From the NCBI GenBank assembly GCA_026770705.1, contig JANJGN010000034.1, positions 3,596,001 through 3,660,000 of the forward strand: a stretch of DNA of 64,000 nt, in the 5' to 3' direction. Made by a program: the position numbers and the translations under genes. Positions 1-35,400 of the stretch are shown here, one piece after another. The notes beneath the pieces are model-generated. The model was not told where the DNA came from, ran no database searches, and saw only the letters and a program-made list of their open reading frames with translations. Positions within the stretch are counted from its first letter, which is position 1, and the number at the start of each line of letters is the position of its first letter. The stretch comes from Isurus oxyrinchus (Eukaryota).

Positions 1-1213
1 TCCTGAATGCTTGTGCCACTGTACTCATCCAAATGGGTGGTAAGTAACTTTTGGACATGTTTTGGGATGTCAGGAAGTGGCTTCTCGCTGCTGTATTTAC
101 AATCTCTGGTTTCCTGTTTCATCCATTGTATTGTATGGCAAATATAATTTTCTGATTCATTGCACAATTCAGAATGTGAGTAGTTGGCGCATTAGATTGG
201 CTACCGTCAATGAATGTGAAGAAGAAATGAAAAGATGTTGCATCGTTGGAGAGGGCCATTTTATGGTATTTGGGTCATTTTCGTATTATGTTTCACTTTG
301 CATCGCAAGCAGGATATCGAACTGGATGGAAAGCTATTGATGAGGAATCTGAAGAAGATTTTTTTTAAAGAGCATTCAGGAAGTTCTCCAGTAGCAATAT
401 GTTTGCTTTGACAAGATTTGCTTCTTACAAGAAACATTTTGCTTAGAGCACGGTACTCGTGCTTGTCTGCTCACTGATTCCCAGTTACTTTAGATTTGTT
501 TGAGCTCCTTGATCCGATATTCGGTCAATAGTCATATGATGTTGATGACAGTCACTCTCACAATGTCTCTGGAGTTCAGCCCTTCGCCCTTTTTTTGACC
601 AAGGCTGCAACCATTGTAGGATTCGATTGGAACTGTTGGAATCCAATCCGAACATCAGTGAACAAATACCAATCTCACTTGTTAAATGAGTGTCTGTTGA
701 AGTTACACTTGTGTTGTTTGCCTTGAACCACAGTACTTTCTGAGGTTCATCCAGCAATTTGCCATAGGATGCAGCAGTTGCTCTGCAAAATGGTTTCATA
801 TGTTCCATGTAATCATTTGAACGGCTTCAAAATCACAATTGACTGACATCTGTATTGCTAGGGACGACAAGAAGAGGCAACATTTATTCATCAAATAGTC
901 ACCTCAAGCTTGATGATTGTCGCTAACCTTTCAGGCCTGACTTTTCACAACTTTGCAGAGATCGTTCATCATTGTATGTACTTGGGCAGCATCATTTATT
1001 CTTTTTATTTGTTTGTTTGTTGTACTTTACGACAACATTTACGACAACGTAACCAAACTGCAATCTTCTGCAACGATATAATTGGAGGGTAATTCATGAA
1101 ATTATCAATGTTATCTCTTTTACGCCCTAACAGATTTTCATTAGCGAATGTGTCATTGCATGTGATGATCAGTTGTTTTTGCACATATTCTCTCTATGGA
1201 ATGTCAACAATAC

Positions 1214-1240
1214 CTTTCTCTTTTTCTTTTAACTTTTCCT
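1214..1240 (-). CDS. micro-exon 24 (27 nt) EEKLKEKEK
   Basis: acceptor gtttctcgctctcag, donor gtattg. Confidence 0.88.
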
Positions 1241-4200
1241 CTGAGAGCGAGAAACATAATTACTTCAATATTGTTTTGAACATAATGCAATGACTGTGGC
1301 TGCAAGAAGGCCAAAACCAAGTTTTTTTCTGCTGTTTAACATGTGGGTGGGATATGGAAAAATGCATTTAATTGCAATAAAGTAAAAATAGTAAGGCACT
1401 TTGATTAAGGACGAAATGTCTGGTAACAATTTTATCCAACAGAGAGTAACGATATACGGAGAGCAGAGAGGCCATAAAGAACTACATACTCAGCTCAGTG
1501 AACATGTGACGAATAAGTAGAAGGTACAAGAGTTCTGAATTCAAGGACGGAAAGAAATATCAAAAACAGTAGATATGAAGTGATGAAATAGGCAGACATC
1601 CACTTAAATTATCTTAGCAGGGAACACAGATTAAGTGACGAGTTTTAGCCAAACCCCGAAACAATGTAAAGTTGATAAACACAAGTTTGGCAACCAAACG
1701 GGATTTGGGATATCAAAGCATTAGTTTCGCATTACTTCAAACAGAAGGAAAAAAGAAGATGGCATTCTGTCGATGAAGAATTTCGGATAGTGAGTGTGGA
1801 TAATATGAAGCAAGTGTGATGTTTTGGACAATCATGTGCATATGTCTTAAAATACAAGTACGTTTCACACATCTAATTATTTAGCCCCGCCTTTTTTTCT
1901 TACAGAACACGGAATGTTGCAATAGCTAATGTTTAACGGTAATTCCTGTTGTGTGTTTTGGTATCTCTTTTTCTGTCCATTCATTCATCCGGCTATCTAT
2001 CTATCTATGTATCATCTATCTATCAGTCTATCCATCTGTCAGTCGATCTATCAATCTATCCATATGCCTACCCACCTACCCATCTTACTGTCCGCCTATC
2101 TATCCACCAATCAATCTATACATTCATTTATGTAGCTATCTGTCTGTGTTCATTGGACGTTGCACCATATTTCTCTTTGTCAAAAATAACTTTTCCAGGA
2201 GTATCATCCAACACTATTTCCCAAAACACTTTTGTTTTTCTTCCCCTTAGGTTAATTTTTGAATTGTCTTGTGGACGCTAAAATTGGACTTCTCTGGTAG
2301 TGCATTTGAAAATTTAACTGCTTAGTTACTAACAACCTTGTTGTTCCATTCTGCTATATCCATACTAATATTTAAGCATTGAATTGGCATTTTCTGTTCT
2401 TCACTCATCCACAAAAGGTGACGGTTTCTCTCTATGTACCTGGCCTGGAGGCCTCCTGCTCTGTTATACACAAAAGACACGGATTTACCTTTCTCCTACA
2501 TGGTGGTAGACCCCCAGTTGCACAAACCTGGAAGCACCACTGAAGTATTGCATCTTGAACAATGTTCCCCTGTCTACCTTCTTACCTCTTCCAAAGTTTC
2601 AGCAGACCTCGAAAAGTCCGATACCCACTATTGGCTTTTCCATTTGAGACTGAACAAGGATTTCGTAAACTCCATCATAAATCTCTGGTTTGCTTTTGTA
2701 ACCGATTCCAGTATTGCTAAATCCCACGACCGTGCTTTCCTTTTTAACAACATTTGCAACTTGTGCGGTTTCCTTTAGCCACAGATGTGAACAATCTCAT
2801 TTCTCTATGTTGAAGCGCCCTCCCAATAATTGAGAAATTATACTTATTTTGCATTTGTTGGATAACCCTGGTAAAAAAGATGAATTCATAGCTATAGGCA
2901 TCAGCGCATTTCGCCTGCCACTTTTCTATCAGCCAAAAAAACATTCCTATGTTATTGTCGAATAAACTAGTGAAGTCCCAACACTTCATAATCCTTCCAA
3001 GTTTGATTCAGCTGTATTTGTTTCGAAAAACTGTANNNNNNNNNNNNNNNNNNNNNNNNNNNNNNNNNNNNNNNNNNNNNNNNNNNNNNNNNNNNNNNNN
3101 NNNNNNNNNNNNNNNNNNNNNNNNNNNNNNNNNNNNNNNNNNNNNNNNNNNNNNNNNNNNNNNNNNNNNNNNNNNNNNNNNNNNNNNNNNNNNNNNNNNN
3201 NNNNNNNNNNNNNNNNNNNNNNNNNNNNNNNNNNNNNNNNNNNNNNNNNNNNNNNNNNNNNNNNNNNNNNNNNNNNNNNNNNNNNNNNNNNNNNNNNNNN
3301 NNNNNNNNNNNNNNNNNNNNNNNNNNNNNNNNNNNNNNNNNNNNNNNNNNNNNNNNNNNNNNNNNNNNNNNNNNNNNNNNNNNNNNNNNNNNNNNNNNNN
3401 NNNNNNNNNNNNNNNNNNNNNNNNNNNATTACCTTCTGGCAACCGTTAATAGACACCCACCAATATTTTTGTTTGCTGTCACTCAGCAGGCTTCATATCC
3501 AAGCTTACATCTCCCATGGGTTCCCACTGAACTGTCAATCTCGTGGCAGATGTATGTCCTCTGTTCCCCAAACAGGAAGCTGTACTTTAGTGTAATCAAA
3601 CATTGATGGTACCGATACATCAGATAACAAAGTGAAACCCTTGATGTCCCTAATAAATAATCCAACAATGTTTTGGCAACTGTGATCACTTCTGTTTTGA
3701 TGATGTCACGCACCTGTAGCTTCGAGAGTTTTCTTCAAGCTTGCACATTCTGCAATTAAAAAAAAATATAGATTGCCACATTCTTCACACCAACAACAAC
3801 ACGATTGGATTAAACATTCAAAATTATTGATCACAAATTGTATAACCTTTCATGCATAATTTGGAGTACATTCCTCACAGTCGCCATGCGGCTTAGAGGC
3901 AGAATCCAATTTGTTGCTTTATTTAAAATAAGACAAAACAGTTCAAAGTGTTCAGTCAGGCCTCTATATTCTGAAGAAAACCGTAGCAAATAAAAAAAAA
4001 GTCCTCATTTATTATTTGAATAATACATTTTGCGATATGCACTGACTCTGTTGAGCATGATTGATTAGTGCATGCCAGGCAAGAGAATCAGCAGAATTTT
4101 TATTTATCTTCCTGTCGGCTCGACAGCCGTGCATGGTGCGGCTGGAAATAATAATGGGTGGATGACGTGCTGCCCGTTTCCATCAAACATAAATTCAATC

Positions 4201-7200
4201 CCAAACTCTAAATCTATTGGTGCTTATCGACGGAAGTGGATAAGATGCTGCTTATTTGTTTTTTTTTCATTTCCTTTTTAGACAAAATATAGGAACTAAT
4301 GCTGTGGTATCTTTTTCTTTTAATGACAAGAGCCAGGGATTATGTCTTTCAAAGACATTCATGATGGAATTTGCGTAAATCATGTAGTACTAACACCATA
4401 AATTAACGTGTCTGTTCAATGCTCGTTTGCAATAAATTCCATGTATGATCCATTGCCATAGGATTTTTCACAGTGCAGAATCAGTTCCTTCAGCACATTG
4501 TGCCAGGTTGACAATGCACTGCTATATTTAGGCACGTCGTCATGATTTGCTCTGCACACCAGGTCGAATTTCAATTTATTTACTGCTGGTTGATTAAAAA
4601 AAAGCTGTATTCAAACTGCTGCAAGCCAATTCACGTGATTAATAGGAAGTTACATCTTCAAAACGTAAACGATAACACTGATGTCTGGCTGGCATATTGA
4701 TTACGGATTTGCCCGGCTACTCAGGTAATCCTTGCCCAATGTTTCAGAATTTCACTTCTAATCTAAGGGAAATGTAAGTGTATTTTAATTGCTTGAACCT
4801 AGATTAAACGGGATACCTATACTCCAGGCAATACGATTATGGTATTTTATGTTGGAAAAAGAAAGAACAGTTTCTTTCCAAATGTTCTTCTGGCAATGCT
4901 AACCCCGTGTTCTTACATGGCCTGGACTATATTTAACTCTAGTCCAGACCAATATTTCCATTCTTAAATTTTCTCAAGATGCGTTCCATTCTAATCAAAA
5001 AGCGACTCACTAGAATTTCCTCGAGGCAACTTAATGGCAATAATTTAGTGGGTCAGTTAAGATGAACACCCAAATCCCGAAAACATCAACAATTTATAGA
5101 CATTGAAGGCATCTGATGTAATCTAAGCTCTCAAAGCAATTGACATGATAATTACTTAATATGGCCTTAGAACCCACAACGGGACTTTTCACCAAATGTT
5201 GACTTAAATAGTTTCTTCTAGGTGGGAGTTTCAGGGGTTCTGAGGGGCGCTGGGAATGATAGGTTGCAGATTGGCTACCGTCCATTTCTTGACTCAATCA
5301 TGCTGCCGCCAGTGTATGCTGCTCTTCAAGGTAATGAATTTGCAAGGAGTTGGATGAGGTGCTGTTCAAGCGGTCCTGTTTGCTAATGGTTATGTCAAGG
5401 TTCCTCCGTCTTTTTGGAACTGCAGATATCTAGGGTAGTTAAGGGCATGCGACCACAATCCTGGCCGGTGAATTGTAAAAGGTTTAATGTTTCGGGACGT
5501 GGTTAAACTCTGCAGAATTTGCAGCCTCTGGCATTCTGTCGTATCCAATGTCCTGTATAGCTAAAAAAAAAGTTATTTTCTGATTAATTGTAGCATCCTG
5601 GATTTTAATGATGGCAAATCAGAACGGCAAGCTACACTGAATTTGAAGAAGACATTGCTAGATATTCGATTGTTGGAGAGGAGGATTTTCTGGCACTTGT
5701 GTGACTTCCACACTACTTTCCATTTTATAACTTAAGCAGGGATAAGCATTACTGCTCTACTTATCCTGCTGGATAGAAAATATTTGATGTGGCATCTGAC
5801 AAAGTTTGTTCCTGAGGACCAACAATAAGTTTTTAGCCTAGAACCACATTAATGCTAAAAAGATTTGTCTATGAACACGAAACAAATTTCCATTGTGGTA
5901 GTGCATGTTCGCTCAGTTATTCCCAAGTAGGCCCACTTTTCTTGGGCGCTTTGATCCCACATTGTTTCAATTGCTCCTTTGATGGCAACGGCAGTGTATG
6001 TTAAAATGTCTCTCGAGTTCACCTCTGCGTCCTTGTTTTTACGAATTTTTTATTGACATGATTAGTCGATTGGCCCTGGAGGCAGCCAAATTGAATATTG
6101 GTTCAGCAATATCTACGCCACCAGCTCCATGAGCAACATTTGTGAAAGTTGTCCTGTTGCAGTTTCCCCTTGACACAATAACCTCTGAAGCTCATGCAGT
6201 AAGTTACCAAAGACAGCTGTTACTGCTGCAGTAAATGCCCTAAACTATTCCATAACATCATTTGAATTGAACCAAAATCACAATGTCTGCCATCTGTCTT
6301 GCTAGGCACCACAAGAGGAGACAACTATTCATCTTCACATAAGCACCCCTTATTGTTGCAAATGTTGAACCATTGAAAGAACGCCTTGACTCTTTCACAA
6401 CTGAGCTGGGAATACCCATCAATGTCGGTTTTTGGGCAGCAGCATTATTTGTTTTCTTATGTTTGTTGAAATCTACAACAACATTCAAAACAAATTCCTC
6501 AACTGTATGTCCTATGGTGTTATAATAAGAGTGTAATTAGTGGCAACCTCTTAGGAGTCTCTTGTACAACATAATAGATACCCAATACCACATCTGTCAT
6601 TGCTTCTGTTGTTTAATTGGACTTCTAAACTGTGAGCAGTGTCAATAAGTACCTTTCTCTTTTTCTCCCAAAGCGTTCACTGAGAGGGAGAAACATAATT
6701 ACGTCAATAATGTTTTGAATATCTTACAATGAACGTGGCTTCTATAATGCCAACGCTATATATTTCTTGTTGTTGTGGAATATGGAATGCGTTACCCAAA
6801 ATATTCAAATGCTTAATAGCAACAAAGGAAACCTGCATTTGTGAAAGCACACTTAACAAGGGAACATGCTTCATTGAAATTCTCAGCTGTGAAATCCGAC
6901 ATGAATAAGCATAGAAGTAAAAGAGGGGGCCAGGCGTGTTAGAAATCCAGATATGTGTTATGCAGGACCTGGTTCCATTATTACAAAAGGGAAAATAACG
7001 AGCTTGGGATATTGAGAGTCGAAATGCCATTGATAACCAGACAAGCAGATTAGGGCAACAATGTTTTAGTTTGTTCTCGAGATGAGTGTAAGGAGAGTTC
7101 TAAATTCATAGAGTACAAAAATCAAAGCATGTCGTTAAATGGAGAATGAATAAATAGATTGTGATGTGGATGGAACAATTGACATGGGAACATTGATTAA

Positions 7201-10200
7201 ACAACAAAGTTTGAGAAGGCATTGAACAAACAGAATGTCGATGTACCAAACACTTGAACAAAAAGGGCATTTGGGAAATGGCGGCATCTTTTTGCATTAG
7301 TTTAAGTGGAAGGATGATAGAGGTTGGATGATTTTCAATTGGGAAATTGAGTTAGTCAGTGTGGATAATGAGGAGGAAGTGCGACGTTTTTGACTGACAT
7401 CTGCGAATGCATTAACAGCATTCCTTTGTTCACATCTAAGTATTTCACCTGGTCTTCTTTAACAAATAACATGAATGGTTCCAGTCACAAAATTGGAACA
7501 GCTATTCTTGTTCTCTATTTGGTATGCACATATCTATATTTCTATCTATCTATCTATCGCTCTGTCTCTATCTAGCTATCTATCTGTCTATCTATTCCCA
7601 ATCTATCTCTGTAAGTATGTAGTTATTCATTTAATGCGTCATCTTTATTACCGTTGTGTATAATCTCAAATAAAGTGACATTTCCCGCTGTTTTCTAGCT
7701 CAGATTTGTTTTTCTTTTCCCTTTATCTGAATGTACTGATCAAATTCTCTTGTGGAGACCACAATTGACCATACCATTTCACAACCGCAGCAGTGCATTT
7801 CAATTTATAACGGCTTACTCTCTACCAACGTTTGTTTTTTTATCCACACAAATGGATGCTGAACATACATCGGCATCTTCTGTTCTTGACTCTTTCAAAA
7901 TACGTGATGTTTTCTCTGTATTTGCTTCGTTTATAGCCCTCGTGATTATAACATATATCGATACCAAACTGATATTAGCAACCTTCTACGTGGTATGATA
8001 CCCGCAGTATCATTGAAGCTCTACATACGGAATAACGTTCCCCTGCATACCATTTTAACTTAAAAAAAAGTATTGACTTCCTTCCAGAAGTGTGGTTCCA
8101 GAATTGGACAGGGTTTCTCAGTTGAGACGGAACGAGGATTTCTTAAAGTCCATCATAATTTCCTGGCTTTTGTGCTCGATTCCTGTATTAATAAATCCCA
8201 TGATCCCATCCTCCTTTTTAACCACTATGCAAATTGGAGAGTTCCCTTTAAACATACGTGCGAAATAAGCATTTTTTATGTGTTCATACACGTTCCTAAG
8301 ATATGGACAATTGTCTTTATTTTGCACCTACCAGATCTCCCGATGAAAAAAAAGTTCATGTTCACAGCTTTGAGTTTCAGTGTGTTTCTTCTGCCAATGG
8401 CAAATCAGTGAAGACCTGATGCCCAAGTGCTCTTGCAGTCGACTAGTTGAAGTACTCACATTTCAATGTTTGATCAGCTGCATTTATTTTGAAGTTGTTC
8501 CATCAGCTACAAATAATATATAAAGGTTGTCTTCTTATGACACTCCACCAGCGATAGTCAATCATCCATCAATGTTTTTTTTTATTCCTGTCACTCAATA
8601 GCCTTCTTATCCATGCCTGCATGGCCCTTTGTTCCCATTGGTAAATATTGAGCTGTGAATCTCTCGAGATGTTTGTGTATTCTGATCACCAAATAGGAAA
8701 TGATGGTTTAGTGTAACCACACATTGATGGTACCGACACATCAATTTAAAAAAAAGTAAAAATATTATGTCCCCACTGAATAATCCACCAACATTTTGGA
8801 GCAGGTTTCCACTTTTGTTGAAATGGTGTTACATACCTGCATCTTCGAGGTCTTTCCTCAACTTTGTTAATTCTGCAATTAAAATAACTTCGAATGTCAC
8901 ATTCATGTTGAATCAGCAACATAACTATTGCATTGAACATGTAAAATTATTGACCACAAATTGTATTACCTATAATCCATGACTTAGTTACACTTCACAC
9001 AGCTGCGATTAGGCTGAGATGCAGAATCCACTTCGTTGTTTCATTTAACGTCCAACAGAATAATGCAAAATAGCCAAAAGACCTCTGCAGACTGAACAGA
9101 ACACTAGCAGGTGAAAAAAAAACATCAGTTGTTTCCAAACAACGATCTTCCTGGCTCTGTTTAACAAAGGACGTTTAAGATACGCCTTGTCATTGTTCAA
9201 GGCGACCTATTAGTGCATGACAGTCGGAGAATCAGCTTAGTTTTGATTTTGATTTCTATAGGTTGGACAACTGGTCCATTATCTGGCCAGAAATAATAAT
9301 GGGCGGGCAACAGAATGCAACCCAATTCTTTCAAACATAAATTCGATCCCAAACGCTAAACCTATTGCTGCTTAATAACAGAGATTAATATTCTCCATTT
9401 TAATTTCATTTGTATATCACTATACTGCAACGTATACAGAAGTCCTTTTATTTTCTTGGGAAGAAGTCGGCGATTCCATGTTTCAATGAGACATTCATCT
9501 TGGAATTTCCGTCAGTCCTGAGTAATGCCTCAGCATGTGTTCACTTATCCGTGCAATATGAATTTCCATTAAGACCTGTAACATTGCCATGCTGATCATG
9601 GTATCTCCGCAACCACAGGATCTTTCACAGGACCGAAGCAGGCCCTTCAGCCCATTGTGACATGATGACAATGCTGGGCCATACTCGGTTGCGCATCTCA
9701 CAATTAGAGCAGCAGAATGACAGCGCATTTACCGATGGGTGCAGAAGGATAAGCTGTACTCAAATTCCTGCATGTCAATGGCACATGATTATTGTAAAGT
9801 TTTGCCTGCAAATCTGCAAGTTACACATGATGGCATTTTGGCACAGTGATTATTGATTTTCTTGGCTAATCAAATATGCCTCGCCACAGGTTCCGGAATA
9901 CCAGTTCAAATCTGATAATGAAAGCAGGAAAGTTGATGTCATTCTAATTGATTACATTTATATTGAATCTGATGTCAATGCTGCTGGTAGGACAAGAGGT
10001 GAAAAGAGAAAAATATCTTACCAAATGTTTTTTTTTCCGGAAATGTTAGCCACTTGTCCTTATAATTCTTGGCATGTCTTTGACCCTATCTATCTGCAAT
10101 GGATGCATTCTAAAACGGTCTCAACATTCTGTCTATTTTAAACAAGGAGCTGACTCAGCAGAAACTTCTCAAGGGATATTAATGGTATCAATTAAATGGT

Positions 10201-13200
10201 TTAGTTAAGAACCAGATCCTGAAACTAAAAACAAGCACAGCTTATATTTGTAAAGTAATTTTAAAAAATCAAATTAATTAACAGGATAATTGGAAAATAT
10301 GAACCAACCACACAGAACGGGACATTTAGAATTTTGATCAACAGTTTGCCTCAAGTGTTCCTTCTAGGTGATGTATGCCAGAGATTTATATGGGACTGTC
10401 TACGGTAGCTTGGAGAATTGCTCCATTACATCTGTTGTCACGTTCTTGCTGTTGCCATTGTATGCTGTTGTTGGAGAACTGAATGCCGAAGGTGGATGCT
10501 GGGCTGCAGTTCAATTCGACTTCTTTTCTAAAGATTATGGCGAGATTCCTGAATATTTTTCCAACTGCTTTCATTCAGAGAAGTGGAGAACATTCTATAA
10601 TAATCTTGGCTGGTGACTTGTAAATGGTGGACATCATTTAGGAAGTCAGGAATTTGATACTCCCTGCTGAATTTGCAGCCCACGGCTTCTTATTCTATGC
10701 AGTGTATGGAATGGCTCAAAAAATTAATCTTCTAGTCACTTGTAGCATCCAGGGTTCTTATGGTTGAAGCAGGTTCACGAGTGCCACTGAATTTCGGAAA
10801 GAAATGTTGTGATATTTCTAACCGTTCAGAACTGGTTAAACAGGACCATTTTCTGGCACTTGTGTTGCATTTGTGCTACGTTTCACTTTGCAACACAGGG
10901 ATGGATGAGCATCTCAAATCTTCTTATACTGCTGGATGGAAAATAATTGATAAGGCACACAAAGATGTTTGTTTCTGAGGAAGGAACCTAAGGTTCTCCA
11001 GTACGAATGTGCTGATGCTGACAAGATTATCTAAAGGCAAGGATAAATATATTCTGTTGTGCGAGGTCTGAATCCAATTAGTGATTGTTCGTGCACTGAT
11101 TCACATTTGCTTGAGCCTTGCTTGGGCTACTTGATGCATAATGAGGCGAAATGCTCCTATGATGTCGCTGGCAGGCACTCTTAAATGTGATTTGAGTTGG
11201 GCCCATTTGCTCGTGTTTTCACCAATGCTGCAATTGAGCCAAGATTCAATTAGCGTTGGTCACCACCAATCTGAAGACCTGCAGACAAGTGTTTATGTTA
11301 CCAGCTCGATGAGTGACTGTGTTGAGGTTGTGCTTGTAAACTTTGCATTGGAACATGTTAATTTCTGAAGCTTATCCAACAAGTTTCAAAAACCAACAGT
11401 AGCTACTGTATCAAATGCCTTCCACTCTTCCATGTGATTATTCGAATGGAAGTGCTGTCACAAATAGCTGATATTGTTTTCCAAACATCTCTAGTTTGAT
11501 TAATGTTGGACATGTCTGGCCTTGACTTTTAACAACTGTGCTTGGTAATCCGCTACTGTGGATTTTTAGGCATTTGTTTAGTTTTTGTCTTTGTTTGCTA
11601 GCTGACCTCTGCACCAACAATCACGACAAATAACAGATTTCCGATGCTTTGTTAAAATATAACAGGAGGGTAATTAGGACAAAAGTCTGAGATGTCTCAT
11701 TTCCAACATCTTAGTTGACCACTGCCATATGTGACGATGCTTGTGGTGATCAACTGGGTTTCCAATTGTGAATATTGAACACTGTGAACAAATACCTTTA
11801 TCGTTTTCTGCCAACGTTGCCTCTGAGATGGAGAAACATAATCAGTTCAATAATGTGGTGAACATATTGCAAAAAACGAGGCATAAGTCTGGCACATTTC
11901 ATACACTTTCTGCTATTTTACATGTGTTTTGTAATATCCCAAATATGCAAATGGTTGTTAGTAACACAAAATAAAAATAACATTTGTAAATGCAGATTTA
12001 TTTTGGGGACATGCTAAAACAAAGTTTTCAGCCATACAATCAGATGCGAATGGACCTCAAGTATGTTAGAGGTGTAAATATAAGCCAAACGAAATATGGT
12101 TCAAATTGAACCAATCAGTAACAAAGAGGTAAAATACCGTAGGTAGCTCATCAACCGATGAGGCATCACTGGTCTTGCTTGGGCAGCGATGAAAGTAAGG
12201 AACACAAGTTCTCAATTCATAGAGTGCTGTAAATCTAGGACATCGTAGACGTGAAAGCAGTAAACTAGAGAGTAACATAACTCGAATTTGTTAACAGATA
12301 ACTTAGATTAAGCAAAGAAGTCTCGCGTACGTGAACACAATGAAAAGTCAATGAACAAATGCGTTCGAACCCAAAGGAGATTAGACAGTAGCAGCATCCT
12401 TTCACATTCTTTTCAAGTAGAAGAATGAAATAAGATGGACTCTGGCGATTAAGTCATTTGGATTGTGATTGTGGACAATAAGAAGCATATGCGATATTTT
12501 GGACAATTATGTCGAGATATGTAAAAACAAAATTGTACATGTTTACTTTTTTCTTAACCCGGCTTCTTTACTGAAGATCATGGAAGGTTCTGGTAAACCA
12601 AAAGGCTATTTTATGTCCTGTGTTTGGTAAATATCGNNNNNNNNNNNNNNNNNNNNNNNNNNNNNNNNNNNNNNNNNNNNNNNNNNNNNNNNNNNNNNNN
12701 NNNNNNNNNNNNNNNNNNNNNNNNNNNNNNNNNNNNNNNNNNNNNNNNNNNNNNNNNNNNNNNNNNNNNNNNNNNNNNNNNNNNNNNNNNNNNNNNNNNN
12801 NNNNNNNNNNNNNNNNNNNNNNCTATTTGCCTATCTGTTTATCGATGTATCAACTATCCATCTTTCGATCTATCTATCTATCGTTCTGTATATTCATTTA
12901 ATCTTATTTCTCTTTGTGTAAAATAACTAATCAAATGGTATCATGACCATTTCCAACGCCATTTTTCTTTTCCCTCTCTAAAATTGATTATCGAATTGCC
13001 CTGTAGAGAACTCTATTGAAGAAAGCACGATCACAATCTCAGGCAGCGCATTTAAATTTTTAATGGCTTACTGCATAACAGCCGTTTTTTGAAAAAAATA
13101 TTTTTTTGGTCTCTTATATCCACACTGATTGTTATCCAGCCATTGTACGCATTTTATTTCTTGAATTTTCAAAGAAAAAGTGACGTTTTCTCCCCACCTA

Positions 13201-16200
13201 CTTCGCCTAGAGCACTTGTGCTTTTGAGAAATGTCAAAACCACTGATTTCCCCATCTCATACAAGGCAGGGTACCCCTTTTATACAACAGTGCTAACATC
13301 AACGAAGATGGGCATCTCTAATAACGTTTGTTTAAAAGTTTAAACTTTTCTAGTTCTCAGCACACTTCCAAAAGTGTGGTGTCCAGAATTGGGCGTGATA
13401 TGTCATCTGATGTTGAAGGATGATTTGCTGAAATCCATCACAAATTCCTGGTTCCGTTTTGTGCTCGATTCCTGGTTGGTAATTACCACAGTCCTGTTTT
13501 CCTTTATTACCACAACCATAGTTGCGCAGTTCCCATTAGCCATACGTGCACACAACCTAATATCCGTATGTAGATGCACCCTCCTAAGAATTGCACGATT
13601 GTCCTTATATTACATCTTCTGGATCTCATTGCGAAGAAAATGTTTCACTTCATAGCTATAGGCATCACGACATTTCATCTGCCACTTGCCTTTCATTCCA
13701 AACAGCATTGCTGTGTACCCGTGGATGGACTCAAATGATCCAAACACTTCAGAAACTTTCCATGCATGACTTAGCCGCCTGTGGTTTAATATTTTGCCAT
13801 CTTCTAGCAATAATATTCTAAAAAAAAATCAATTAGTTACCTTCCAACAACAATAAATAAAGTTCCAGAAGTACTTTTTATTTTTCTCCCTGTCACTCAG
13901 AGTGCTTCATTTCGATAACTGCACTACATTTTACTCAAAGGATGCCATTGACCTGTTAACATCTCGACGCAAGTGCTAACTCTGATCAACAAATATGAAA
14001 CGATGTTCTACCGTAACCGGCAGATCGATTAACTAAGTAACGCCTGTTTCTACTAGTTAATCTACCAAAATTTCAGAGCGAGTCACCAGTTCTCTTGATA
14101 TATTGCCCACCTGCTGAATCGAGACTTTTCTTCAGCTTTGCTAATTCTTTTTTAAAATAAACATAGCATATTTCATGGGTGAGAACAAAAAACTAAACTA
14201 TTGAATTAAAATTGTTATATTACTGATGACAAATTGTATTACGTTTCGTGGATGATTTAGGGTACATTGCACACAGCGGCCAAAGGGCTTATCAGCACAA
14301 TTCATTTCATTGCTTGATTTGACTTATAGCAGAACCAGGCAAAATAGCCAAGAAACCTCAACAGTCTGAAGAAAATAGTAGCGGACAAAAAAACATCAGT
14401 AGGCACGTTGATTCAATGAAACTAACTTCTTGTTTTTGTTTAAAAAATGATATTTCAGATGCGCACTTCCTTTTCTCAAGGCGATCGAATAGTGCATGAC
14501 AGAGATAAGAATCAGTTGAGCTCTGATTTTGCTTGCTATATGTTGGGCAATTGGTCGAAAACCTGGCCGGAATAAAATAACGGGCAGGGAATGCAATGCA
14601 GCTCTTTTATTACAAACATAAATTCGATCCCAAACTCTAAACATATTGGTGCTTAATTACACCGTTGAATATTGCGTTGTTTTTTTTTTATTTCCATTCA
14701 TTATATCGAAACTCATATAGATGTCCTTTTATTTTCATGGCAAGAATTCGGTGATTCTGTGCTTCGATGAGGCATTCATCTTGGAACTTGTGTCACTCAG
14801 CATGTGTTCACTTATCCGTGCAATATTAATTTTCATTATAACCCACACCATTGCAATGCTGGTCATGGTATATCCGCAGCCACAGTATTTTTCACAGCAC
14901 AGAAGCTGGCCCTTTAGCCCATTGTGACGTGTTGAAAATAATGGGTCTTGCTAAGATGGAACCTCGCAATTAGTTGTGCACAATGTCAGCCTATTTATTG
15001 ATGGGTGCAGGAAGAAATTGGGTATTCAAATTCCTGCAAGGAAATGTCACATGATTAATGGAAAGTTTTGTCTCTGAATCTACAGGTTACACATGATGGC
15101 ATTTTGGCATAGTGATTATAGATTGGCATGGCTAATCAAATTTGCATTGTCACATGTTCCAGAATATCAGTTCAAATTTGATGAGGGCAGCTGGAAATTT
15201 TACGTCATTTTAATAGATGACATATATATTGAACCTGATATCTATGTTCCTGGCTACGGTACTATATTGGGCGATAAAAGAAGAATATAGATCCAAATAT
15301 TTTTTTTCGGGCAATGTTAGCCGCTTATCCTTACATTGTCCAATCTATCTTTGCCGCTGGTCCACCAGCGATGGGTGCATTCTAAAATGGTCTCAACATT
15401 CGCTCCATTGTAAATAAGGAGGAGCATCACCAGAAACTTCTCAAGGGTAATAAAATATAGTAATTTTGTAATTCAGTTAAGAATAACAAACAAAAACTAA
15501 AAGCACGCACAAATTTTATTTGTAAAGGGCATCTAACGTAATTAAAGAACAACTCAAAGTAATTTACAGGATAATTACAAAATCTGAGCCAACCAGACAC
15601 ATCGGGACATTCGGACAGTTGGCAAAGTGTTTGGTTCAAGAATTTCTTCTAGGTGATAGATGCAATGCTTTCTGAGTTAAGTTGGAGGATTACTCCGGGA
15701 CATGTGTTCTCTCTTCATTGCTGCTGCCAATGTATGCCTAAGGAGTCTCCTGGGCTGCAGTTCAAGTGGACTTCTTTGCTAAAGATTATCTGGAGATTCC
15801 TGACAGTTTTTGCAAATGCTTTCACCCAGGGAGGTCGGAAAAATTACACAAAGATCTTGCCTGGTGTCTTGTAAATGGTGGACATGTTCTGGGAAGTCCG
15901 AAATTGGATAATCGCTGCTGAATTTGCAGCCACTGGCTTGCCATTCTATTCAATGAACTGAACGGCTCAAAACATTAATTTTCTGGTCAATTGCTGCATC
16001 CACGGTTTTTATGTTCCAAACAGGAAGACCTGCGCCACTCAATTTCAGGAAGAAATGTTTAGATATTTCTAACCGTTCAGAAATGTTTAAAGAGGACGAT
16101 TTACTAGCAATTGTGCACCATTCCTGCTACGCTTCACAGGCATGGATGAGCATCGCAAAGCTAGTTATCCTGCTGGAATGAAAGTAATTGATAAGGCACA

Positions 16201-19200
16201 TGAAGATGCTTGTTTTTGAATGAAAAACCCTGATGTACTGCAGCAAGAATCTGCTGATGTTGACAAATTTGCCAAAAAACACAACAAATGGATTTTATTG
16301 TGCTAGGTCTGAATCCAAATGGCGATTGCCTTTGATTAACATTACTTCAGCTTTGTTTGGGCTACTTGATGTAATATGAAGCCAAATAATGCTATGGTGT
16401 CGCTGGCAGCCACTTTCAAGATGTTGCTTGAGTTCAGCCCAATTGCTCATTTTTTGACCAAGGCTATAATGAGTCAGGTGTCGATTAGGACTGGTGGCAC
16501 CCAATCAGATCATCGGTTAAACAAAAATATCTACGTTACCAGGTAGCTGAGTGACAATGCTGAATTTGTGCTTCTGCAATTTGCATTGCAGCACATTAAC
16601 CTATGAAGCACATCCATCAATTTTCAAAACCAACGGTATGAAATGCCTTCAACTCTTCCATGTCATCTCTTGAAAGTCCTCAAAGTCAATAATATTTGTC
16701 ATCACTTCTCAGGCACCTCTAGCTTGTTGAAATTTGGAAATGTTCAGCCTTGACTTTCAGCAACTGTGCTTGGTAACAAGTTGCTGTGGTTATTTTGGCA
16801 GCAGCTATTTCTTTGCTTTTGTTTGCTTACTGACCTCTGCACCAACACTGACGATAACGTAACAGAATTGCAATGCTTTGATACAATATAACAGGAAGGT
16901 AATTTAGGAAAAAGCCTGTGATGTCTCATTTCTGACATCATAGATGGCCACTGCCGTGTGTGACATTGCTTTGGTGTCAACTGGATTTCCAATCAGGAAT
17001 ACTGAGCTGTGTCAACAAGTACCTATATCTTTTCCTTTCAACCTTTCCCCTGAGAGGGAGAAAAATAATTAGTTCAATAATGTGTTGAACATATTGCAAT
17101 GAATGTGGCATCAATCAAGCAAAGGCATACCCTTTCTGCTAATTTACACGTGGTGTGGAATACCCCATATATGCAAATGGTTGATAGTAACAAGAAATAA
17201 AAAATGCATCTTAGCGAATCTAAGATGAGGATATTGCTTAACAAAGTTGTCAGACATACAATCGAATGTGAATGCAGGACAAGTATGATGGAGGAGTAAA
17301 TGTATGGTAGGCGAAATATGATTCAAATTGATTCAAATGGTACTAACGAGGTTAAATGACATAAGCAACAACATCAACAGATGAGGCAGGGCTGATCTTG
17401 CTTGAGTGGAGCTGAATTGAAGCAACCAGACTTCTGAATTCATAGTGCACAGTATATGTGGAAGTCATGGATGTTACAACAGTGAAATAGAGAGATAACT
17501 AGCTCGAATTTTTAAACTGAGAACTTAGATTAAGCAACAAACTCTCGCCAGATGTGGAATCATGAAAAGTCGATGAACAAATGGTTATAAACCAAATGGG
17601 ATTGGGCATAGAGCAGCTTTGTTTCACTTTTTTTTGTGGAATAATAAATTAAGATGGAGTCTGGCGGTTAGGACATTTGGACAGTCAGTGTGGATATAAA
17701 GAAGCACATGGGATATTTTGGACCTTTATGTCGATACACACTAAAGCAACATTTTGTTTTACATATTATTTGTTTTGTAACCCGCCTCCTTTACTGAACA
17801 TCATGGAAGGGTCCAGTGAAAAAAAAGAATCCTATTGTATGTCCTGTAATTGGTATATATCTATCATCGCATCTATCTATCTATCTTTCTTTCTATGCAT
17901 CTATCTATCTATCTATGTTTCAGTCTATCTGCGTGTCGATGTATCAATTATCGGCCTTACGATCTATCTAGCTATCCGTCTGTATATTCATTTAAACTTA
18001 TTTCCCATTGTGTAAAATATTACTGTAAATGGTATCATGACCCGATATTTCCAACGCCATTGGAGGCCAATATTGATCTTAAACCTTCTCAATCTCATGC
18101 GGCACATTTTAATTCTGAACGATTTACTGCTTAAAGCCTTTCATAGACAATTTTCTTTGGTCTCTTGTTTCTTCTTTGGTCTCTGATTGTTATTGAGCTT
18201 ATATTGGCATTCTTTTTCTTTAAGTCTTTAAAAATGTAGTGACGGTTACACTTCCCCTACTTCACCTGTGCTTTTGAGATACCTCGTAAAAACTGCTTTC
18301 CTCTTCTCTGGCATGGTAGGATACCCGGTGTTACACAGCACTGCACAAATCACTGAAAAACCTCATCACAAATAATTTTTCCATGCATAAAAATTTAACC
18401 TTTTATCTAGATCTCAGATTCATTCCTGAAGGTGGCATCCATAATTGGTCATGATATAGCATTTGACGTTCAAAGAGGATTTCCTAAACCCCATCAAAAA
18501 AGCCTGGTTTGCCGAAACCACGTTCACAATTGCACAGTTTTCATTTGCCGTATGTTGATGCGCCCTTCTAAGAATTGCACGATTGTCCTTCGGTTGCATC
18601 TTCTTGATCTGCCGACGAATAAACATTTCATTCCCTGGCTAAATGCATCGCGATATTTCGTCTGGCACGTGCTTATCAGCTGAAACAGAATTCCTGTGTC
18701 CCCTTGAGTTGCCTCGTATGTTCTACCCACTTCATAATCATCCCGTGCTTGAATCAGCTGCAAGTGTTTTGATATCCTGCCATCTGCTCGGAATAATATT
18801 TTTAAAAAAGCATCTTCTTATTACCTTCCATCCACAAGAACTAACGGTCCACCAATAATTCTTGTTTCAATAACAAAGATATGTTGGAAAAACCTCAGCA
18901 GTTCGACTGCATCTGTGGAGAGGAAGGCAGTTAACGTTCCAAGTCCGTATGGCTCTTCATCAGAACTTTTTGTTTTCTCCCTGTCACTCAGCAGGATTCA
19001 TATTCATGCCTGCACAACCCTTTTATTCAAGGTTGCCCATTGGCCTGTGAACCTCTCGACACATATATCAGCTCTGATCCAGAAATAGGAAAGGGTGCTT
19101 TAATGTATACATATATTGATCCTACCAGCACCTCGATTAGCAAAGTAAAGCCTATGACGTTCCTAATTATTAATCTGCCAACATGTTGGAGTGCATTGCC

Positions 19201-22200
19201 ATTTCTGTTGATATGATGTTGCGCACCTGAAGCTTCAAGACTTTTCTTCAATTTTGCTAATTCTGCATTGAAAACAATATAGAATGTTCCAATGGCGAGA
19301 CCAACGATTGAATTAAACATGGTATATAATTGATCACAATTTGAAATACGTTTCATGCATGATTTAGCGTACATTGCAATAGGCTGAGAAGCAACATTCC
19401 CTTGGTTGCCTGAATTAGCTTGTAAATAACAATGCAAAACAGCCAGTTAGAGCTCTGTTGTTTGAAGGAAACCTAGCAGATGAATAACCCATCACTTGGT
19501 TGGTTTAAAACAGCCTTCTTCTTTATTTTAAAGGGTATATTCGGATATGCAATGGCATCCTTGAACATATTGATCAGTGCATGACAGACGGCAGATTCAG
19601 CTGACTTTTGATTTTTCTTACCACAGGCAGGGCAACTGGGGAATAGTCTGGTAGGAAATAATAACAGCTGACCGAGTTAATTCTGTCCGTTTCTGCCAAA
19701 ATGTAATTCGGTCCCAGACTCTCAATTGGTGCTCCGTAACAGGGACAGAACATGCATTGTTTCTTTTTTTTTTTTATTTTGCTTTGTCGAATGCAGCATT
19801 GCAAATAATACCGATGTCTTTTACTTTTCATGGCAGTAAGCCAGGGGTTCACTGTTTCAAAGGAATTTGTGTACATCATTTAATACTTCCTCAGCAACTT
19901 TGTGCTTCTCTGTGCAAGGTTCATTTGCATGACGAACCGTGCCTTTGCATTTTGGTCATGGTAATATCTACAACCATAGATATTTTTCACAGAATTAAAC
20001 CGTTCAGCGCATTGTGCCATGTTGACAATCTTAGGTTCAACCTGACGATAGACTCTGTACACCAAATCTAATTTTAGCCTTTTTCGGATTAATTAAAAAA
20101 GTTGCATGCAAACCTTGCTGCAAACCAATGTCACATGGCTAACGGAAAGCTTCGTCTACAAATCTAAAAGTTGCACATCATGGCAGGCTGGCATAGGGAT
20201 AAAAGATTTCTGCAGCTAATTGAATCATTTTCTTCCAATATTCCAGAATATCCATTCCAATGGGATAATGACTGCTGGGACTGTAAAGCTATGTTAGTTC
20301 CTTGACTGGAGATTAAATGTGATATCTATGCTCCTGGCAATGAGACTGCAATGTATAAAGGGTGAGGTGAGGGGCATGGGGTGGCGGTGGAGGTGGGCCT
20401 GAACGAGGAGATTAGGGGGGTTGAGGGGGGAGGACGGTCGGCGGTAGAGCTATTTCATTCCAATTGTTCTTTTGGCAGAAATAACGTCTTGCCATTATAT
20501 GGTTTGGCCTATGTTTCATTCTACGACATGCACAAAAAGGACATTCTGAAATGGTCTCATGAATAACTCTGTTTTAATCAAGGGGGCGACTCACCATAAA
20601 GTTTCATGGGCAAATAATAGTAGTAATTAACTGCTATGTTTATGAATAATATTCAAAATCTGTACTTATAATTGTAAGGATCATTTAAAATAATAAAAAC
20701 TCTCCAATCATTTAACAAGGTAATTGCAACATATGATTTCACCACACATAATGGGGCATTATGGATGTTGACAAAACTTGTGCTCAGATAGATAGATTTA
20801 AATTATTGTGTTAAAGGAAGAGATTGTGGAAGAGAGCTGGAGGGTATTGTCATGCAAGTGTTTCAAAGCAATGATGACAAGCTTAAGATCAAAAACTTGC
20901 TATGAAAACACTGGTGATGTTTTAAGGGTTGAAGCTTTTTACAACATGGGCAAAATAGTAGTTTTATGTCCCCACCTTTACGGAATGCAAAATGTGGAAT
21001 AGCAGCCAGAAGTGAGTGGAGATAAACAATTCCTGGTTCATTAATGCGCTAAGCCTAGCAGCAGATGAGCTGCATCAGAGGCGAACTCGGGCAAGGCTTC
21101 ATAGGTCGAACAAGACAGTGATAATGATGGTGCTTAACCGATGTCAGAATTATGCATTGTGTGTCTCAAGTTGCTAGCAACTGCCCAAACGGACTGTTGG
21201 TTGGGAGACCAGTTGAGTCATTGGTCGGCAAGGGAGCTTAGACTGTGGACTGGAAAGCATGGTATTATTATTCGAATTTTGCAAAACGATGAAAGCTCTC
21301 CTCACTCATTACTGATGCTAGACACAGATTCTGACAATTTCGTAAATATTGAGGATGCAATGGAGGTGGTCCCGCAATAAACGTAGAAATCCTCATTATT
21401 CAAATGAAAATTAAGGCTGTCCTTTCGAGTGATTTTGCAAGGAGCAGCATGCAGACTAGAAATAAATGTTGGATAAGAATACTCCTCAGAGGACATTAAA
21501 ATTGTGAGGAATAAAGCATTGGAAGTTTTTATGGAAGAAGAATGACGAAGCTGGAATTGTTTGTTTGTAACAGGCTTATCGTAAATCATTTGTCACATTG
21601 AACAACAGAGTTTTTCTATTTCAACAGTAGAGGACACAGAACTGAAGGGATTTCTACGGAATTCGGAGGAAAATTGAAATAATTTGGAAAGCTAAAATGC
21701 TTTCAACGAATTCGGTTGAAATAAAATAAAATGTTGGAGATGACTTTGCAGTATGAAAAGATTTTGGGAGTGAAGCGTTTTTTATGTGGGGATAAATAGC
21801 ATGAGAGATGTGGAACAAAAATGCTTTGAAACAGGTACACTAAATAGTGTAGCATCTTACCTTCATCTTTTGCAAGCTTTTCTTCAAACACAGCTAGACA
21901 AAGTGGAAATACCACATTAAAAATAAAATTTACTCAATGCATATTTTAAGTATTGTTTCAGAAGTAAAATTCTTCGCCTTCAATGTATTTAATCACATCT
22001 AAGCACTATGACACTAGGACTCGAATGCTGCTGCATCACCCTGGTCTTCCACGCAATACTATGTCTCAGTCTTTAATTCCCCCTCTGTGAAAATCATGTT
22101 TCTTTCTCCCTAACGGTGCAGTGGGTGCACCTTCTCCAAATGCACTGCAGTGATGAAGAAGGGGGCTTATAATCAATTTTCAGAGCATTTCGAGATGAAC

Positions 22201-25200
22201 AATCATTGATGGCCTAGTTGGAGACACCCAAGTTCTGTCAAAAAAAAAGAAACAAAAGCTACAATCAATACATAAATGCAAGTGAAGTAAATCTAATGAT
22301 GTTGTATTATCACTGCAACTAACAATGAAAAAGGAAAAACCTTAATTTACCATTTGTAATTGAGCCAAAAAAAGGCATCGCCCTGTAACCTACTAATGAT
22401 GAGCCTCTGAGCACCAGGTGTTTCTTTAAAGATGAATGTACTATCTCGGCTCTTGTGTGCTTTCTGTTTCACATTCAAAAGGCGATCTCCAATTGCTCAC
22501 AATGAGCTGATGCACAGTGCTGTTTTTTTTCTTTTTTATCAACACATATTTAGTCATAACCTTATATTTATGTGAAGTCAAATAATTGGCAAAAACATCT
22601 TAAAGGAAGGGAGTTACAAGTTAATTTCCCTCACGGAGGACACTCTGCCCATAAAAAATGTCAGACGCAATTTTGCCCCGCCGCTCTATCCATGTTGTTC
22701 AATAAGCTTATTTTCTTCAACTTAATATCGAAATTAATCTTGAGATTGCTGGTCCGAAGCACTTCCAATATCATCGAGCCTAGTGAACCAGAGGTCCTAG
22801 GTAAGCATTTTGTGAAAAACAAATCTTCCCAAGATTGTGTTCTCCTGATCGACTGTTACTTGATCCTCGTCCTCCTTCCAGGACGATGTTCTCAGAGGTT
22901 TCTAGCGACCATCTACTTCCTTTCGATCGGAGAATGATTACGTTTGGCAAAATACTGCAGTGGTTCGCCATAGCATTCGATCCTATGTCTGACAAGTAAA
23001 ACCGACAGCTCTTACCATCTGCAATGTGGCATATTCTGAATATTCTTGTGCTGACAAATGACCTATTTCGCCATGTCATGAACTCACTATTGGTGGGCAC
23101 CAGTTCTTGAAATAAGATTACAAACTGAATTTCTAGCACAAAAATAGAGGCGCTACCAGTGCGCTAAAGGCTTTCTGAACGTTTCCTAATCAAACAAGTT
23201 CGAATAGATTAGTCAAGCTTGGTATGCATGCCAACAACCCGTGTTGAAAATCCTTAAATCAAACAATCCTCCCCAAATGCTTCTTGATTTGCCCTTTGGT
23301 TGTTGTTTCTTGTCAACCACTTGTATTAATTGTGTGGCCTGCAGATGTTGGAACTGCTCCTTATTGGATAGCACTATCACACCTTCAGACCACAGTCCCC
23401 TATTTCTCGAAGATTGGAAGCCATCCCAGCATCTTCACCTCAATTTTGATTAGCAGTGTGGGATGAGAGTCAACCGCACCAGTCAATTTGCTTTCATTTG
23501 GTCTGTTTGGTATTTGTTATCTACGTGGATTATTTGTAAATTGGTATTTGGAAGATAAAAATATAGTAGAGGAATTATATGGGACAAAGAGCTAAGCTAA
23601 TATAAATATTTTGATGACAATCTTCGGTTTTTTAGGGAATATAATGGTGCTACGTAAATGGAACTACTTGTTTCCATTGCTGGTGAGAAACACAAAGCAA
23701 TTTAAAAATAAAAAAGTGTTTAAAAAAAATCACCTACATTTAAAATTATTATGCAACCATAGATGAAGGCATTCAACTATTCATTTGAAATTAAAGCAAG
23801 CATTTTTAGCATAAAATAAATTTGATTTGAGTCGTTGATTTGTAGAAAAGCACAAAATAATTCACAGTCAAAATTTGCAATGCTGTGTACGTCAAAACAG
23901 TGGATTATTTATTCCGGTTACCTTTGTCTTGGTCTTCCAACTTTTTTTCTATTATAAAGAAAAAAAAGAGTTCAAACATGTCGAATTAATGCAAGTGATC
24001 CTGGGTATTTTGTTAATTTTCTGTGAAGGTCAGGAATCAGCCAAACAGTGTAAAATTGTTGCAAGTGATCCCGGGTATTTGTTAATTTTCTGTGAAGGTC
24101 AGGATTCAGCCAACTGGTGTAACATTGTTGTATTTACAAATATGTGAACATGTCAGTCACTGTACTACAATTTGGTGTAAATTGTGTATGGATGGACAAT
24201 CTTTCAAAGTATATTATATTATGATTGAGTCTATAGTTTTTTACAAAACTTAAAATTAAGGTATATGACTTAAGATTAAGTCATACGGACTTGAAGAGTC
24301 ATACGGAATCGAAACATTAACTTCTGTCTTCCTCTCTACAGTTTCTCAGCGTTTATTTCATTTTATTAAGGTATGTGGGTCTCTACGCATTATACATTTG
24401 AATGGCTGGAAAGGACATTCATCACGATTCTTACCGAATTCCTGTATCGTCTTTTGGCACGTCGATAATTCTAAAAAACAGAAAGAATGAAATTTTGGTC
24501 AATCAATCGATCCTCTCCTCCCTGAACTGCAAATAATTCCTTTTCATAATTCCTAAGGATTACATGGAAAGCGCGAGGCTAAATCAGTGACTTCAGCCAG
24601 TCAGGTTAATGCATTTCCACATATTTGCTAATAGTGACCACTAAGCTTACCTCATCTCATCCTTCCAAATATTTTTCGTTTCATGTCGATAACCTGTACA
24701 TTCATTAAATACACCTTTGCAGCTAACTCAATTCTTCTGCCTCGGAGCAGTTCTGCTCAATAACAACTGTTTGAGTAAAGCTGCGTCATCTGAGTTGCTC
24801 ATTGATAATTGGCGACCGTGTTGCGAAAATAACATGTATAAAATATCTTCGTGCAGAGTTGCAAACATCTGCTTTATGTTTCTCCTTAAAACATCGTTCA
24901 GTTAAAATTCCAGATAACGTCACCATAAGCCATCCCTTTCCATGATGAAAGAGCTTCAGCCAAACCACTTACGATTTCCTTTTATCTTTGGAGTTGTTCA
25001 TTGATTCATTGAAGACCATATGATAAAAATAACCAACTGGTACTAAAAAAAAAACGTCTTCTTACAGTTGCAAAATCTGCTGCAGATTTCACCTGAATCA
25101 TAAGCACACATCATTCATTCTGAGAACAATTTCAAGTCACTACCGGTCATTTCTTTGAAGGAGGAATAAACCTAAGCCTGTTATATATTTTATGATAGTT

Positions 25201-35369: not shown

Positions 35370-35400
<31 letters not shown>

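Follow-up and report, generated by a model that had tools for sequence, protein, structure and literature searches.

How can a coiled-coil protein be lengthened by duplication of very short exons without losing either its reading frame or its heptad register? The question is raised by a 64,000-nucleotide (nt) stretch of the Isurus oxyrinchus genome (assembly GCA_026770705.1, contig JANJGN010000034.1, forward-strand positions 3,596,001 to 3,660,000; hereafter the window, numbered from its first base), in which an earlier note had described a 5.2-kb two-exon unit duplicated in tandem. We propose, with a probability of roughly 80%, that the window covers the middle of one functional minus-strand gene, whose pair-built coiled-coil rod grew by nested duplications and would act as the spacer, stalk or tail of a receptor. 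The product would contain a rod, an alpha-helical coiled coil at least 270 residues and ~40 nm long that is made from phase-1 micro-exons, and its building block would be one 36-nt plus one 27-nt exon (12 + 9 residues, three heptads). Any exon duplication would keep the frame, since every exon is a multiple of 3 nt; only duplication of the pair would also keep the register.

A tandem array within a chain of 27 micro-exons

The left third of the window holds four tandem units of ~5.2 kb on the minus strand, each with one 36-nt and one 27-nt phase-1 exon:

15631-20781, minus strand: tandem unit 1 (5'-most), made of the 3' part of the pre-36 intron, the 36-nt exon, an intron, the 27-nt exon and the 5' part of the post-27 intron
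10346-15630, minus strand: tandem unit 2, a mosaic, unit-3-like up to ~14300 and unit-1-like after
5201-10345, minus strand: tandem unit 3
1-5200, minus strand: tandem unit 4, truncated at the window edge, ~165-200 bp short of its end
19227-19262, minus strand: y1, 36-nt phase-1 exon, register g to d
17023-17049, minus strand: Z1, 27-nt phase-1 exon, register e to f
14111-14146, minus strand: y2, 36-nt exon, weakest acceptor of the set (score -4.3)
11796-11822, minus strand: Z2, 27-nt exon
8837-8872, minus strand: y3, 36-nt exon
6653-6679, minus strand: Z3, 27-nt exon
3714-3749, minus strand: y4, 36-nt exon
1214-1240, minus strand: Z4, 27-nt exon, last exon inside the window

All eight array exons have AG..GT borders and are phase 1-1. 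The 27-nt exons are spaced by 5227/5143/5439 bp and the 36-nt exons by 5116/5274/5123 bp, which on the minus strand reproduces exactly the spacings given in the earlier note (5439/5143/5227 and 5123/5274/5116); two of the three N runs in the window (3036-3427 and 12637-12822) fall inside spacing intervals, so those lengths are estimates. In a global four-unit alignment the eight exons occupy identical ungapped columns, and the array introns show 62-71% pairwise identity with 14-21 indel events per kb. The description of intron copies rich in substitutions and indels, around eight exons that all keep their length, AG/GT and open frame, was therefore accurate, as was the count of 63 coding nt (36 + 27) per 5.2-kb unit, i.e., 21 residues or three heptads.

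The array continues upstream into a gene that reaches at least position 60885, with 19 further micro-exons on the same strand:

21861-21893, minus strand: V2, 33-nt exon; the ancestral acceptor is gone and a new AG stands 6 nt upstream; with a second AG, at 21881, the exon would be 21 nt long
23922-23948, minus strand: z2, 27-nt exon
24435-24470, minus strand: Y4, 36-nt exon, Cys at d
25493-25519, minus strand: X4, 27-nt exon
30470-30496, minus strand: W2, 27-nt exon, resembles a 5'-shortened 36-nt exon
33925-33951, minus strand: Zd, 27-nt exon, flanks homologous to array 27-nt exons
37389-37424, minus strand: y0, 36-nt exon, older paralogue of array 36-nt exons
40184-40210, minus strand: V1, 27-nt exon
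43802-43822, minus strand: z1, 21-nt exon; ancestral donor lost, new GT 6 nt upstream
44042-44077, minus strand: Y3, 36-nt exon, Cys at d
44883-44909, minus strand: X3, 27-nt exon
49040-49066, minus strand: W1, 27-nt exon
52577-52603, minus strand: Zc, 27-nt exon
53368-53403, minus strand: Y2, 36-nt exon, Cys at d
55985-56011, minus strand: X2, 27-nt exon
58066-58092, minus strand: Zb, 27-nt exon
59608-59634, minus strand: Za, 27-nt exon
60039-60074, minus strand: Y1, 36-nt exon, Cys at d
60859-60885, minus strand: X1, 27-nt exon, first exon found inside the window

A splice-signal scan for spans of 15-60 nt on both strands of the window, in which no amino-acid information was used, gave 61 scoring spans on each strand. 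On the minus strand 16 of them were 27 nt and 9 were 36 nt long, against 0.8 per other length; none of the plus-strand spans had either length. The assembled chain runs from 60885 to 1214 and comprises 27 exons (16 of 27 nt, 9 of 36 nt, one of 21 and one of 33 nt), 26 of which appear in the scan. Joined in silico, they encode 270 residues with no stop in phase 1, compared to 29 and 12 stops in the other two phases. The coding total is 810 bases in 60 kb, no exon exceeds 36 nt, introns measure 0.2-5 kb, and every one of the 27 exons keeps its AG, GT and open frame despite Jukes-Cantor distances of 0.32-0.53.

Beneath the array lies an older duplication, visible as two collinear blocks:

36412-53161, minus strand: block B, older ~18.5-kb seven-exon block, Zc to y0
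18187-34525, minus strand: block A, the older paralogue collinear with block B; seven exons, from Zd to y1

When 53200-34601 was compared with 34600-15631, 11 of 14 matches were collinear at offsets of 17,990-19,762, and flank homology paired Zc with Zd, W1 with W2, X3 with X4, z1 with z2, and y0 with the array exons. This intron homology supports exon paralogy independently of the exon sequence. Because of the collinear matches and the flank pairing, the 5.2-kb array is read as the most recent layer, added on top of an older duplication of a seven-exon block. W1 and W2 agree with the final 27 nt of the 36-nt exons at a mean of 10-12 of 27 positions, versus 7-8 for the other 27-nt exons, and are probably 36-nt exons shortened at the 5' end.

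The unit boundaries were placed with a profile built from the three complete 27-nt-to-36-nt introns and compared with the rest of the window. This profile is chimaeric: its positions 1 to ~1460 match introns coming after 27-nt exons elsewhere in the gene (33924-33380, 51692-51231 and 56793-56479), and positions 1449-2939 match introns that precede 36-nt exons (20781-19263 and 38705-37425), which puts the unit start at ~20781 and the unit junctions near 15630, 10350 and 5205. Bases 1-1200 had been taken for the next intron copy, with the array continuing leftwards. Bases 1-1209 match only the post-27 intron part, which also follows non-array exons upstream; they make up the post-27 part of unit 4, which is cut off ~165-200 bp short of the next junction. 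Four units and five or more predict the same bases here, and we rejected a fifth unit as unproven.

Several other features of these introns were recorded. A TATC microsatellite lies at the homologous spot in all four units (1993-2060, 7531-7595, 12823-12890 and 17854-17916) and in an older paralogous intron (34939-34987), and it borders two of the three N gaps. Unusually strong conservation is seen in the intron directly 5' of the 27-nt exons (1168-1312, 6607-6751, 11750-11894 and 16977-17121), as well as at 52603, 33951 and 58092; this stretch may hold a branch point or a micro-exon enhancer. At the y2 acceptor (14147-14165, minus strand) an A-run replaces the pyrimidine tract and the exon may be skipped. 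A two-copy 69-bp tandem repeat (23990-24130) stands just upstream of exon z2. At 31802-33318 about 500 bp are repeated at 1-kb spacing with 60% identity; they are related to the post-27 intron and look like debris of an old long interspersed element.

Among the spans outside the chain, 47265-47245 (minus strand) is an open candidate 21-nt phase-1 exon with a Cys; it makes one heptad, would keep the register and has no block A counterpart that we could see, and its addition barely alters the register score (69.7 vs 71.0). Two spans of 36 nt have a stop in phase 1: 60742-60707 (minus strand), which resembles part of the 36-nt exons and is possibly a decayed exon, and 1299-1264. The 30-nt span 38489-38460 (minus strand) has a strong donor, is coiled-coil-like in phase 0 only and is probably a chance or dead exon. 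The inner V2 acceptor at 21881 was left out as well.

Evidence for selection on splicing, frame and heptad register

The conservation of the array exons was judged against overlapping intron windows of the four-unit alignment as a neutral yardstick (4222 windows of 27 columns and 4216 of 36 columns). The comparison of exon with intron conservation, the check proposed in the earlier note, gave a divided answer. Exon length alone is no proof of selection (P ~0.09), since gap-free windows are common in the introns (35% at 27 columns and 24% at 36 columns; product 0.086), and exon identity is only a little higher than that of the introns (72% vs 64% over the four units), being matched by 27% of intron windows for the 27-nt exons and 5% for the 36-nt exons. 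The splice sites, in contrast, are far better kept than intron sequence: of 933 intronic AG dinucleotides 136 are retained in every one of the four copies, as are 96 of 826 GT dinucleotides, rates which give P ~3e-4 for the four retained splice dinucleotides. In a neutral simulation 7% of runs stayed free of stops, and the four core sites remained hydrophobic in all four copies in 3%. Length, splice sites and absence of stops combined have a neutral chance of ~2e-6 if the terms are treated as independent. All four units are under selection, mainly for splicing, frame and core, because splice-site retention, lack of stops and the kept core exceed the neutral expectation; outside these the sequence of the array exons is hardly constrained.

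The predicted chain is that of a coiled coil. It is rich in Lys, Glu and Leu, lacks Pro, Trp and Tyr, and has a hydrophobic period of 3.52-3.54; a collagen-type origin of the 27- and 36-nt exons was rejected on composition, since the 270 residues include 9 Gly but lack Pro. Each of the nine 36-nt exons runs from g to d, and most 27-nt exons run from e to f. In the array the a sites are hydrophobic in 12 of 12 cases (11 Leu, 1 Cys) and the e and g sites in 2 of 24, giving the hydrophobic a/d seam with charged flanks that is seen in BG proteins and butyrophilins. The real exon order beats all of 2000 shuffles on heptad score, and 1997 of 2000 when only the 19 upstream exons are used. Removing any one of six internal array exons lowers the no-break heptad score from 0.34 to 0.09-0.27 per residue, and after removal of any of five adjacent array exon pairs it stays at 0.33-0.36. 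The idea that selection keeps both frame and register is thus supported by the splice sites, the absence of stops (P 0.07), the core sites (P 0.03) and the exon-removal scores.

Register may also have left a mark on the gene structure. Successive 36-nt exons are spaced by 39, 39, 28, 39, 32, 21, 21 and 21 residues, and all eight values are 0 or 4 modulo 7, i.e., pure heptads or one stutter. In block B the donor of z1 has been lost, and a GT located 6 nt upstream would take its place; in block A, V2 would rely on an AG 6 nt upstream instead of its lost acceptor. If z1 and V2 were once both 27 nt, a spacing of 30 residues (2 modulo 7) would have become 28 and 32, which is suggestive only: the three 39s and the three 21s share ancestry, the ancestral state is a parsimony estimate from two copies, and, with six small shifts possible, the chance that two would both be favourable is about 1 in 9. 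We consider it somewhat doubtful that the full scheme holds, in which the gene belongs to an undescribed cartilaginous-fish receptor family with a rod of 36+27-nt pairs, selection acts on register through gene structure, gains survive only at 0 or 4 modulo 7, and each block copy repaired the 30-residue spacing by a 6-nt shift (to 28 in one, to 32 or 28 in the other).

A number of observations weigh against the proposal of one functional, register-selected gene. The exon chain is predicted from DNA sequence, and its members were chosen partly on amino-acid make-up, with five candidate spans omitted. The y2 acceptor is weak (-4.3). The array exons have proportions of nonsynonymous and synonymous differences (pN and pS) of 0.29 each, so that dN/dS is ~1.0 on 57 nt per copy, and only 6 of the 12 array d sites are hydrophobic. 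Four register breaks upstream of the array, scored as five jumps in one analysis, indicate that register is not absolute. No start, stop, transmembrane, ligand-binding or globular-domain exon was found in the window, and the N gaps in the assembly leave room for collapsed near-identical copies.

Possible placement of the rod in a receptor

Most likely, the rod would belong to a membrane receptor and serve there as spacer and as oligomerising stalk or tail, similar to the tail of chicken BG; this role rests on analogy because none of the exons for a start, stop, membrane anchor or ligand-binding part was found. By the way the exons build the rod, BG is the closest system. The excerpts of the BG papers describe a tail that is predicted to form a coiled coil and that varies from gene to gene and between haplotypes; it is encoded by 27-37 exons of 21 nt whose first codons are split (PMC5938342, PMC4046983). 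The likeness extends to a long coiled coil from about 30 phase-1 micro-exons with split first codons (27 such exons here), to heptads that straddle exon borders, to length changes by gain of several exons and to the presence of cysteines. There are also differences from BG as described in the same excerpts. A BG exon is 21 nt or one heptad, whereas here the 36+27-nt pair makes three heptads, single exons break the register, and the exons are 16 of 27 nt, 9 of 36 nt and one each of 21 and 33 nt. BG varies among genes and alleles. The copies here are old and the introns measure 0.2-5 kb, and immunoglobulin (Ig) and membrane exons are not seen in the window.

One placement, which we hold tentatively, makes the rod the cytoplasmic tail of a butyrophilin- or BG-like type I receptor, with the Ig domains and membrane anchor beyond base 64000 and perhaps a B30.2 domain before base 1. 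The coiled-coil BG tails with 27-37 short exons, split first codons and cysteines (PMC5938342, as excerpted) speak for it, and excerpts on vertebrate butyrophilins describe heptads after the membrane anchor and members of the family in cartilaginous fishes (PMC12841164, PMC4046983), with heptad numbers that vary in squamate butyrophilins (PMC12841164). The 270 residues contain no N-glycosylation sequon, a weak point in favour since about one is expected. Against it, the exons of BG measure 21 nt in that source, with a few of 18 or 24 nt, and only 1 of 27 has a length of 21 nt here; mammalian butyrophilins have only a few heptads before B30.2, compared to at least 38 here; and no Ig, membrane or B30.2 exon is present in the window.

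About as likely is an extracellular, disulphide-linked stalk of a type II membrane protein (a CD23/CD72/CD209-like lectin or a tetherin-like protein) that raises a C-terminal domain, because all 7 Cys fall on core positions. They occupy a or d, and six of them lie within the N-terminal 160 residues, where disulphides between chains would be expected if a membrane anchor were close by; core Cys are also found in cytosolic coiled coils. The phase-1 exons and the 21-residue repeat also bring to mind the stalk of CD23 (FCER2), which consists of 21-residue three-heptad coiled-coil repeats whose number differs between species, for which our literature search gave no confirmation. Each CD23 repeat lies on a single 63-nt exon and there are three or four of them, whereas here the repeat is split over exons of 36 and 27 nt, with ~13 pairs. 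The lack of sequons and of a lectin or membrane exon in the window also counts against an extracellular stalk.

Direct searches contributed little to the choice. No Ig, membrane, B30.2 or lectin exon occurs in the window, and both gene ends lie outside it (5' beyond base 64000, 3' before base 1); of candidate exons of 45-400 nt, the window has two strong ones, neither Ig- nor membrane-like by eye. Protein searches used profiles of single exons. Alignments of the nine 36-nt exons had no match at E <= 10 among 7998 candidates in a search that is nearly blind: in controls the exact rod scored only E 0.002 and 0.0004, and 0 of 10 copies at 90% identity reached E 1e-3. Empty protein searches therefore say nothing about absence. 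The one match among 1.84 billion representatives (P0023, E 3e-4) is an ASH/Ig-repeat protein with no BLAST match to the rod and was discarded as false, and the two PDB matches of the 36-nt exon profile at E 0.61, both enzymes, were discarded as well. Rfam gave 0 matches, and Pfam found GIY-YIG in 1 of nine open reading frames of the window and nothing else. No literature joining heptad micro-exons to cartilaginous fish was found in a search that left subscription papers mostly outside, and the phrase 'tandem exon duplication' was in none of the literature matches listed.

Array history and possible sources of rod length

Rod length might vary through exon skipping, which would give a ladder of rod lengths from one micro-exon gene without any change in DNA copy number. 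All exons are symmetric multiples of 3 nt, skipping of an adjacent pair keeps the register, y2 has a weak acceptor and V2 two possible acceptors (both compatible with the register rule), and BG transcripts show intron read-through and shortened tails in the excerpts of PMC5938342. A single array exon skip breaks the register, and we regard skipping as an unlikely main source of length, which can nevertheless coexist with the reading of a pair-built rod grown by duplication.

The earlier note had suggested that unequal crossover could make rod length polymorphic. As history, unequal crossover is supported. Before alignment column 1400 the closest pair is units 2 and 3 (75%; other pairs 62-64%), and beyond the 36-nt exon it is units 1 and 2 (73-75%; other pairs 60-64%), the relationship switching sharply at ~19395/14300 (unit 1/unit 2 positions). 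Informative sites are 74:14 before and 57:194 after a breakpoint at 19446-19398 in unit 1, and none of 2000 permutations equalled this.

19390-19446, no strand assigned: inferred crossover point of the youngest duplication; the homologous unit-2 site is 14294-14351

The youngest duplicated stretch is one unit long and is joined at a homologous position; these are the traces that one unequal crossover between misaligned units leaves, and the mosaic is a clear record of one such ancient event. A pair of independent conversion tracts would explain it less economically.

Crossover as a continuing source of variation is not supported. For homologous crossover to be efficient, a few hundred nearly identical bases are required. 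The unit copies are 62-75% identical, the youngest differ at ~26% of sites, the best 100-bp window between units reaches 88%, and the longest perfect run is 31 bp, which falls well short of what frequent crossover would require at present, and present-day length polymorphism of the rod is unlikely. The array is old, with a copy number that is probably fixed. Jukes-Cantor distances are ~0.32 for the youngest event and 0.53 for other pairs; literal dating by the epaulette shark mutation rate, given as 7e-10 per generation in the excerpt of PMC10587355, yields ~2e8 generations, which is implausibly many, and we state the age as 'old' only.

An active two-exon array with copy number differing among individuals would resemble human LPA kringle IV type 2 (KIV-2), excerpted as a 5.6-kb unit of 2 exons in 1 to more than 40 copies (PMC6314250). 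The unit size and the head-to-tail, two-exon layout, in which each ~5-kb unit adds one protein module, match KIV-2; one unequal crossover did occur; and N gaps could hide collapsed young copies. In KIV-2, as far as the excerpt goes, the exons (160 + 182 nt) encode a globular kringle and the copy-number-variable repeats are highly similar, whereas here 63 coding nt sit in 5.2 kb and the copies fall far below near identity and below the run length that crossover requires. We judge such activity very improbable. An assembly artefact, chance pattern or decaying pseudogene, for which the N gaps and the equality of pN and pS might speak, is most improbable, given that 25-38% divergence between copies rules out misassembled haplotypes, that the plus strand has zero 27- or 36-nt spans, and that all exons keep their splice sites and frame at such distances.

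In the proposed history of a pair-built rod, very old pair duplications would have come first, followed by the ~18.5-kb seven-exon block duplication and then by the 5.2-kb pair unit, which has its breakpoints in two different introns and would have reached four or more copies through an amplification that ended with a homologous unequal crossover. Selection would keep splice sites, frame and hydrophobic seam and tolerate stutters, while surface residues drift.

The window has 39% G+C and three N runs, with the look of intron-rich animal DNA with repeats. A GIY-YIG-bearing retroelement fragment, which we take to be Penelope-like, lies at 35172-36230, with a second copy (79% identical) at ~62300-64000; it has 22 database matches, both named ones from little skate, with a best identity of 66%. 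From this one transposon the sequence itself points to a cartilaginous fish as the probable host. Pieces related to the fragment are found at 41679-42330, while 51700-51937 and 18858-18970 hold short flanking elements.

Such a gene is easily missed by annotation and protein searches, as it has 810 coding bases in 60 kb and a largest exon of 36 nt. The polymorphism that gave the initial observation its appeal is unsupported. Growth of a rod by gain of short exons is already known from chicken BG; the pair-built, three-heptad version is new. In BG each exon is one heptad and register comes free, whereas here neither exon is made of whole heptads, so that frame and register are separate and the gene preserves a record of the duplications and splice-site shifts that are tolerated in a coiled coil. 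If the register rule is true, heptad phase, beyond reading frame, would filter exon duplications and splice-site shifts.

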